The notes under the pieces were generated by a model that worked only from the letters and a program-made list of their open reading frames with translations, was not told where the DNA came from and ran no database searches. This document shows, in pieces, positions 16,263 to 17,688 of a DNA stretch of 64,000 nt. Within the stretch, counting starts at the first letter, position 1; each line of letters starts with the position of its first letter. The DNA comes from Escherichia coli (lineage in GTDB: Bacteria > Pseudomonadota > Gammaproteobacteria > Enterobacterales > Enterobacteriaceae): assembly GCF_016026235.1 (NCBI RefSeq), contig NZ_CP065613.1; one strand, 5' to 3'. The translations under genes and the position numbers were made by a program.

Positions 16263-17688
16263 TAATGCCAGTCAGTTAAGCAACTGACTGGCTCTTTTTC
16301 GGGGCTGTGGGGTATTTCCAGGGCCTCTCCTTTACCACTCTCGGGAAGGCCCTTCCCCTTCTCGTCGGTAATTTCACAAGTTGTCCCATACTTGCAAGAT
16401 CGCGCATCAGCTCCGGTATACGTCCCGGTGAAGCGCCCTGCAATGTCATCAGCATTCTCATCACCATTCCGCATGATTCTGAGAAACTCAGTTGATTCGG
16501 CCAGTAACCTTTCAGATGTTCCGCCATTTTAATCATCTGATATCTCACCAGATTATAAGCCAGTAAGACACCCTACAGCTCTTGCTCCACAAGCTCCGGC
16601 TTTTTACTTCTCAGCGTCAGCCTGCTCAGTTGCATCGTCTGTTTTATCTCCCTGTATCCCAGTTCGATTTCCCAGCGATGACTGTACAGATCCGCCATTT
16701 CTCCTCCGGGGAAGCGCATGGCGTCCGTCATCGACGTCAGCAGATGGCAGACTTTTCCTTTGCGCGTCACGGTCAGCAGGCGGGCTGTCACTTCATTTCC
16801 CAGTCCCGGCCACTTTTTTCGTGCCTGCGGGCTGGTTTTCAGCTTCACCAGATGATCGCCTTTACCCAGTTTTCTGAGCTCTTCATATTGCGCTCCCTTT
16901 CTGAGAGGTATCATCCAGTGGCGGTGTTCTCCCGCCAGGCTCCAGGCATTTAACAGTCCCAGTGAGTAATAACCTTTATCCATTAACGTCAGAGTGTTAT
17001 CGCCGGTTTGTTCTATAAGTTGCTCAGCAAGCTCATTTTCGCTGTTCTTCATCGTGCCGAAGGCTGCAGCCGTCAGCAGATGGCTGGTCAGTTCCATCTG
17101 GCAGACCATTTTGACCTGCGGGTAGAGCGCCGGGTTCCCGGCATGTGTCTGGCGGGGGAAGGCTGCATCGTTCTCTGGTGTATCCGGTGTGCGCCAGAAC
17201 ACACCATCGATGGCCAGCAGGGTCAGGCCGCACCAGTGCGGATGCGGCGTGGCGTTATGCCAGAGCTGCGCTGTTTTCGTGAACACGCGGCGGACAGCCT
17301 CACTTCCCAGGCGCTGGCGGGCCTGAATAACGGCACTGGGGGCAACGAAGGGGCGATTGCCCGGCAGCATGATGTCCAGGCGATTCACAATCTGGTGAAG
17401 AGGTTCTTTACGCTCAAGCGCCATGCCAACAATACACCAGACCATCATTTCGAGGGGAAGACGGCGCTTGCGTAGCGTTACAGTACCTGATTCGGCAAGG
17501 CAACGAGAGATGAGTTCGGGGTCGAGGTAATCCCCCAGAGAAGTCAGTGGGTTACGCAGAGAATCGTAACGGGATACCAGATCAAGAGCCTGTCCAATGT
17601 GCATAAAAAAATCCGGAAACAAGTGAGCGTTTCCGGATTCTTACACAGCCACTGGATCGGTCAACTGATCCTTAACTGATCGGCATTA
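16263..17688 (-). mobile_element. IS4 (1426 bp) flanked by a 12-bp target-site duplication cttacaaggatg
   Basis: Imperfect terminal repeats taatgccagtcagttaag / cttaactgatcggcatta; identical 12-mers at 16251-16262 and 17689-17700. Confidence 0.9.
16276..17604 (-). pseudogene. insG: IS4 transposase with an in-frame stop (TAG where Trp is expected)
   Basis: ORFs 16573..17622 and 16276..16548 are in the same frame, separated by a stop at 16573-16575 (…LVEQEL* then GVLLAYNLVRYQ…). Confidence 0.8.

Follow-up and report, generated by a model that had tools for sequence, protein, structure and literature searches.

A W344 amber codon in an otherwise intact IS4 of Escherichia coli most likely leaves the copy without an active transposase

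Can an IS4 copy still move on its own when the reading frame of its transposase is closed by a single internal stop codon? This question is raised by a locus of Escherichia coli on contig NZ_CP065613.1, which was analysed within a stretch of 64,000 nucleotides, here called the window. A preliminary description of the DNA had proposed that the IS4 copy in it carries a nonsense mutation in its transposase and is probably non-autonomous and fixed unless complemented in trans. The positions of the element, of its parts and of the gene that it interrupts are collected in Table 1.

Table 1. Positions in the window of the IS4 copy, its premature stop codon and the interrupted host gene.
Feature	Position	Strand	Basis or remark
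Complete IS4, 1426 bp	16263-17688	- (transposase strand)	inverted repeats and target duplication at the borders
IRL (transposase-start end), TAATGCCGATCAGTTAAG	17671-17688	-	exact pattern match; one arm of the inverted-repeat pair
IRR (transposase-stop end), TAATGCCAGTCAGTTAAG	16263-16280	+	16/18 match to the other arm
Target-site duplication, copy 1, CTTACAAGGATG	16251-16262		direct repeat, 12 nt, 100% identical, abuts IS4
Target-site duplication, copy 2, CTTACAAGGATG	17689-17700		direct repeat, 12 nt, 100% identical, abuts IS4
Premature amber stop TAG, codon 344 (TGG/Trp elsewhere)	16573-16575	-	plus-strand bases 'cta'
Truncated transposase ORF, codons 1-343, ATG at 17604	16576-17604	-	translation
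Untranslated rest of the transposase frame, codons 345-442 and TAA	16276-16572	-	codes the conserved C-terminal part
Host gene, 5' part, 711 codons	14129-16262	+	ORF list; the ORF continues into IS4 to 16279
Host gene, 3' part (DUF4132 portion)	17701-19367	+	ORF end at 19367; Pfam DUF4132 on the called 517-aa product

The identity of the element was judged by the features that define the IS4 subgroup. Its size, measured from outer end to outer end of the repeats, lies within the subgroup range of 1400-1650 bp (PMC2266710, Table 1), the 12-bp target duplication lies inside the 10-13 bp of the subgroup, and both ends, with arms of 18 nt, begin with TAATGCC and have the conserved -AATR start. The IRR sequence is identical in the intact IS4 copies compared. 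Annotated 'IS4-like element IS4 family transposase' loci were matched in 2,686 of 5,426 complete E. coli genomes, and the best of them is 99.9% identical. The element is IS4 (IS4 family, IS4 subgroup) and shows all defining features that could be tested except an open transposase frame, i.e. the name given to it at the outset is borne out by its ends, its duplication and its near-identity to annotated IS4. Further matches to the terminal repeat were sought across the 64-kb window and none was found, so there is a single IS4 in it.

The transposase is read on the minus strand from 17604 to 16276, in a frame of 1329 nt that comprises 442 codons and a TAA. Minus-strand translation confirmed this frame as first described (16276-17604, 1329 nt) together with the local peptide quoted for it, and also the in-frame TAG at 16573-16575, which is codon 344 and the sole internal stop. 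The mutated base is 16574, where the plus strand has T in the window and C in other copies. The Trp that had been assumed to be normal at this codon is indeed encoded (TGG) in the K-12-derived copy and in all close relatives examined. The truncated product of 343 aa has already been deposited from assembly GCA_900449985.1 (STM86291.1, 'transposase insG'). As regards the start of the protein, PGAP calls the intact IS4 transposase as 448 aa from a TTG at 17622, 18 nt upstream; in the classical InsG, as in the calls of the protein collection, the start is the ATG at 17604 and the length is 442 aa.

The window copy was aligned with IS4 copies from other genomes, and base 16574 is C (TGG) in the K-12-derived copy and in seven copies of Shigella/EIEC type. 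The chromosomal copy of EIEC CFSAN029787 differs from the window copy (1426 bp) at one position, 16574, and this position is also the only difference in six more copies, which occupy six loci in three other assemblies. Counted together, seven intact copies, each at its own locus in Shigella/EIEC-type genomes, are thus one base away from the window copy. In the K-12 derivative ER1709 the insG copy shows 7 differences in 1426 nt, one of them being C at 16574. K-12 insG and the Shigella/EIEC IS4 agree with the window copy in length (1426 bp) and inverted repeats and likewise have a 12-bp duplication and a frame of 442 codons, whereas the window copy has TAG instead of TGG at codon 344 and a product of 343 instead of 442 residues. 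The intact protein, which is identical but for the stop, is found in 341 blocks of the protein collection, several loci per genome included. Judged by these alignments, the window IS4 is the common Shigella/EIEC haplotype with one coding-strand G-to-A transition (TGG to TAG).

The frequency of the allele was examined using a 55-mer centred on 16574, in which any 28-nt megablast seed must include the variant base. The TAG 55-mer had no match in the 5,426 complete E. coli genomes (megablast) and none in the 72,556 plasmids of PLSDB, and the wild-type (TGG) control 55-mer was found at 4,115 places in 2,009 genomes of the complete E. coli set. The comparisons indicate that the TAG allele is derived and rare. 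Four short Logan/ENA contigs, considered as extra TAG carriers or as a polymorphic branch, merely end inside codon 344 (one of them, L006, reads TG(G) there) and were discarded as a selection artefact of the exact-protein look-up among thousands of IS4 fragments. An 86-aa ORF downstream was rejected as a marker of the TAG allele; it is unspecific and is also called where IS1, IS3 or IS66 interrupts IS4 in Shigella. When the intact protein was looked up exactly for IS4 copies in the source assembly, this assembly was absent among the matches listed (10 places).

A different kind of variation at the C terminus was seen in the same protein collection. The 401-aa cluster P0128 and similar clusters represent a variant of the IS4 transposase with 98-99% identity up to about residue 301; beyond this point the sequence diverges, and the proteins are 383-405 aa long. 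The variant is very abundant (one cluster has 1,517 members) and resembles an IS4 allele, widespread in E. coli, that is frameshifted or has an alternative C terminus.

The consequences of the stop were investigated at the level of domains, conservation and predicted structure. Pfam assigns residues 18-109 of the intact protein to Nterm_IS4 and residues 126-352 to DDE_Tnp_1, both far above the cut-offs. In the truncated product Nterm_IS4 also covers residues 18-109 and DDE_Tnp_1 covers 126-334, ending at profile position 184 of 200, and a Pfam search of the C-terminal fragment alone gave no match. Two features define the IS4 family, namely the Y-(2)-R-(3)-E-(6)-K motif and the DDE triad (PMC2266710), the latter being D133, D209 and E314 here. 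The motif is complete here (Y307, R310, E314 and K321), and both triad and motif lie entirely upstream of the stop. In an alignment of 83 full-length homologues, with identity down to about 28%, the residues D133, D209, E314, R310 and K321 are invariant and Y307 is found in 81 of the 83. The stop lies 30 residues past the catalytic Glu and removes residues 344-442 (99 aa). The mean majority fraction of this removed part is 0.45 as compared to 0.50 in the catalytic core, and the segments 344-380 and 411-430 reach 0.53 and 0.60, respectively. Within the removed part S373 and R422 are invariant, while N351, R354, A361, F374, L412, R416, R418 and K425 are conserved in at least 90% of the sequences. 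Position 344 itself is aromatic in 77 of the 83 homologues.

The AlphaFold (AF2) model calculated on the 83-sequence alignment (pLDDT 88, pTM 0.88) places the stop within a predicted helix that spans residues 336-362; the truncation also drops the predicted helices 374-388 and 396-410 and the basic tail. The best PDB matches of this model in Foldseek are structures of the Tn5 transposase (1MUH, 4DM0, 3ECP, 1MM8 and 1MUS; E 5e-9 to 8e-8, probability 1.00); the match extends over practically the whole length, with no residue-level alignment in the Foldseek output. A plain sequence search of the PDB with the IS4 transposase gave no match. From the shared position of the YREK motif and the overall fold we infer that the missing region may roughly correspond to the dimerisation subdomain of the Tn5 transposase.

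This correspondence suggests how the mutation may act, since the C-terminal part of the Tn5 transposase carries a helix that joins two end-bound monomers, and the delta369 form, which is without the last 108 residues, gives a complex of one monomer with an end but no transpososome (PMC2632911). We propose that an IS4 variant whose copy number has risen in Shigella and enteroinvasive E. coli inserted into the chromosomal WGR/DUF4132 gene downstream of metG, and that a coding-strand G-to-A change turned Trp344 (TGG) into an amber codon, which stops translation after residue 343. The product keeps the N-terminal end-binding domain and the DDE/YREK catalytic centre but loses the conserved C-terminal 99 residues, and the lost region may, as in Tn5, be needed to pair two end-bound monomers as a transpososome. 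Because the putative pairing region is missing, the window copy most likely makes no active transposase; the role of the C terminus is here carried over from Tn5 at ~12% sequence identity. The inverted repeats, on the other hand, are untouched and the same as in intact copies, so that the element would be a possible substrate for the transposase of an intact copy.

An autonomous copy has an uninterrupted full-length transposase frame, and here the frame is broken by TAG at codon 344 of 442; a copy that is mobilisable in trans has both terminal repeats intact, and this is the case here. The best reading appears to be that the copy is non-autonomous and movable only in trans. We put the probability at about 0.88 that the window holds a young, otherwise intact Shigella/EIEC-type IS4 in the WGR/DUF4132 gene that, given the W344 amber, is most likely without active transposase and has ends that are possibly usable in trans. 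The initial suggestion of a probably non-autonomous copy is supported by the loss of the conserved C-terminal part, by the cut through a predicted helix and by the precedents of Tn5 and IS50L. Mobilisation in trans seems plausible from the sequence of the ends, and related EIEC genomes have IS4 at 5-16 places. The transposases of the relatives IS10 and IS50 work mostly in cis, so that rescue in trans would be inefficient. In the absence of a helper transposase the window IS4 would be a stable pseudogenising insertion, and we infer that it may be fixed, as had been suggested.

The comparison with Tn5 and its IS50 arms brings out both likenesses and differences. IS50L differs from IS50R by one base that gives a nonsense codon and a nonfunctional transposase, and it relies on the transposase of its intact sister copy (PMC9330008). 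The likeness to the window IS4 would lie in a single-base nonsense mutation in the C-terminal part of the transposase, a nonfunctional enzyme and usable ends. The loss is smaller in IS50L (26 residues), and the mutation there has the further effect of making a promoter for the resistance gene, whereas the window IS4 is without a passenger gene and no paired helper copy is evident nearby. Tn5 delta369 is similar to the IS4 fragment in that it has a C-terminal deletion of ~100 residues (108 vs 99) that begins a few tens of residues past the catalytic Glu. Delta369 keeps end binding and the DDE site, and the IS4 fragment is likened to it by fold, the identity being only ~12%.

Of the other explanations, the first to be considered is that the truncated protein is kept as a trans-acting inhibitor, i.e. 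it would bind IS4 ends, fail in synapsis and damp IS4 in an IS-burdened genome. Such a role is suggested by Tn5 delta369, which binds ends yet is synapsis-defective (PMC2632911), by the natural truncated inhibitor protein that Tn5 makes and that lowers its transposition (PMC4265352), and by the fact that the identical nonsense change is found on two IS4 haplotypes at two loci. The second TAG copy belongs to GCA_002968245.1 (L004, PSSR01000003.1 149801-156832), in which an IS4 at locus positions 2917-4342 encodes the exact 343-aa product with the same Trp344 amber. This copy sits at the rpoD terminator, adjoining mug, and differs from the window IS4 at positions 93 and 1007; if the TAG is disregarded, its nearest counterpart is the copy at the rpoD site of an O121 strain. 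We note that a second TAG at another locus is not what our main explanation predicts if the mutation is taken as a single, neutral event.

The second TAG arose either because the same transition occurred again independently or by gene conversion between copies, and it does not show that a TAG copy moved. The rpoD site holds IS4 in about 818 complete genomes, and the TAG 55-mer is found in none of these. Each assembly that carries the truncated product has it on only one contig. The lineage test, in which the IS10-like fusion marker of the window strain was sought in GCA_002968245.1, was negative, and the flank of the L004 copy has no close relative among complete genomes. A recurrent transition among many sequenced copies, or gene conversion, would explain the second TAG without selection, and the allele is very rare, with no sign of spread or further adaptation. 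Moreover, the Tn5 inhibitor is, like the IS4 fragment, a natural truncated form of an IS4-family transposase, but it is without the N terminus and acts via the C-terminal dimerisation region, which is absent here; since the IS4 fragment is without its C terminus, inhibition by it would need occupation of the ends. We consider the inhibitor role to be unlikely. It is similarly unlikely that the W344 amber arose or was copied at least twice (at the yehH-like site and at rpoD-mug in GCA_002968245.1) for the reason that a transposase truncated in this way, able to bind ends but defective in synapsis, dominantly restrains IS4 in enteroinvasive lineages rich in IS elements.

Another explanation would be an error of sequencing or assembly, with a real copy that is intact. 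Only one base separates the TAG copy from very many copies that are identical to each other, and mis-polishing is conceivable in a multi-copy repeat; furthermore, one NCTC assembly matches the window at 100% identity, and the two may be the same data. The identity was seen with contig UGFA01000005.1 of GCA_900449985.1 and covers window positions 11129-19279. However, the insertion is also found in GCA_014155105.1, which shows two private single-base gaps, in homopolymers, and still has T at 16574. As this second assembly of the insertion also carries the TAG, the allele is not an assembly error. The third assembly has the same TAG in another copy (that of L004), and mis-polishing from sister copies would restore TGG rather than make TAG. 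An error is thus very unlikely.

It could also be argued that the 343-residue protein is still an active transposase and that the copy is autonomous. The catalytic residues (DDE and YREK) and the N-terminal domain are all kept, and the same allele at two loci could mean movement. Against this, the lost 99 residues are conserved to the same extent as the core among homologues down to about 28% identity, and the stop breaks a helix that is confidently predicted. By analogy, activity would not be expected, given that a comparable deletion abolishes synapsis by the Tn5 transposase (PMC2632911) and that IS50L is inactive after a still smaller loss (PMC9330008). The allele is single-copy per assembly and absent from the 5,426 complete genomes, which means that it is not expanding, and the L004 copy need not have arrived with the TAG, given that TGG copies occupy the rpoD terminator in about 818 genomes. 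We therefore give very little weight to residual activity. Amber read-through by a suppressor tRNA or leaky termination, which would keep the copy functional, is extremely improbable: basal UAG read-through occurs in E. coli, but it is orders of magnitude below normal translation and IS transposases are already made in tiny amounts, amber suppressors are rare in natural isolates, and the 64-kb window has no tRNA gene and hence no suppressor tRNA.

The gene interrupted by IS4 lies just downstream of metG, in the metG-yeh region, and codes for a 1266-aa WGR and DUF4132 domain protein that is molR/yehH-like. The 716-aa fusion product of host gene and IS4 clusters with 1266-aa sequences annotated as 'WGR and DUF4132 domain-containing protein'. 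IS4 is found at the identical site and in the same orientation in JNQH497 (NZ_CP091925.1) and JNQH498; in JNQH497 the 5' part of the host gene is annotated as a pseudogene and the 3' part as 'missing N-terminus'. The IS4 of these two differs from the window IS4 at 12 of 1426 nt, and the flanks differ at 6 of about 6,600 nt. The use of JNQH497/498 to date the mutation as post-insertion was rejected, as their copy is too divergent in comparison to the flanks and probably goes back to an independent insertion or to conversion. The IS4 of CFSAN029787 is also at the rpoD site, in the orientation opposite to that of the L004 copy. Taken as sequence comparisons, the insertion site shared with JNQH497/498 and the two orientations at the rpoD terminator point to repeated use of preferred IS4 targets.

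The window contains further mobile elements. An IS1 of 768 bp lies at 9069-9836 (insA 9124-9399, insB 9318-9821) in the yehC fimbrial chaperone gene and is absent from JNQH497. A second IS of ~1.29 kb lies on the minus strand at 20954-22245; its DDE_Tnp_1 transposase has an IS10-like N terminus and 396 aa as called in the NCTC assembly. This element disrupts the next WGR/DUF4132 paralogue, so that IS elements inactivate both of these neighbouring paralogues. From about 39265 to 64000 there is a lambdoid prophage (terminase, portal and tail genes) with a gene for an ipaH-type T3SS effector E3 ligase. Its start lies inside mlrA (yehV), at the point where the window ceases to be colinear with JNQH497, and its best match is E. 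coli FDAARGOS_943 (98.7%). Judging from these sequences, the ipaH prophage and the other IS elements suggest an enteroinvasive E. coli or a Shigella-like host. IS4 is expanded to multiple copies in such lineages and is thought to have come with the invasion plasmid (PMC7373316). Close relatives of the window haplotype are found on plasmids of ~290 kb, i.e. of pINV size, at 4-6 places each.

Defective IS copies that result from a point nonsense mutation are commonplace and the truncated protein is already public. The nonsense mutation as first described is correct and its interpretation reasonable, but the case is ordinary. The insertion had already destroyed the host gene, and the stop codon is therefore without consequence for the physiology of the host. 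For annotation, the window copy should be labelled as a pseudogene or a defective IS4. The insertion in the WGR/DUF4132 gene is probably a stable lineage marker. With regard to the IS4 family, the copy would be a natural counterpart of IS50L, in which one base stands between an active and a dependent IS4, and it may be used to probe the trans action of the IS4 transposase and the role of its C-terminal domain.
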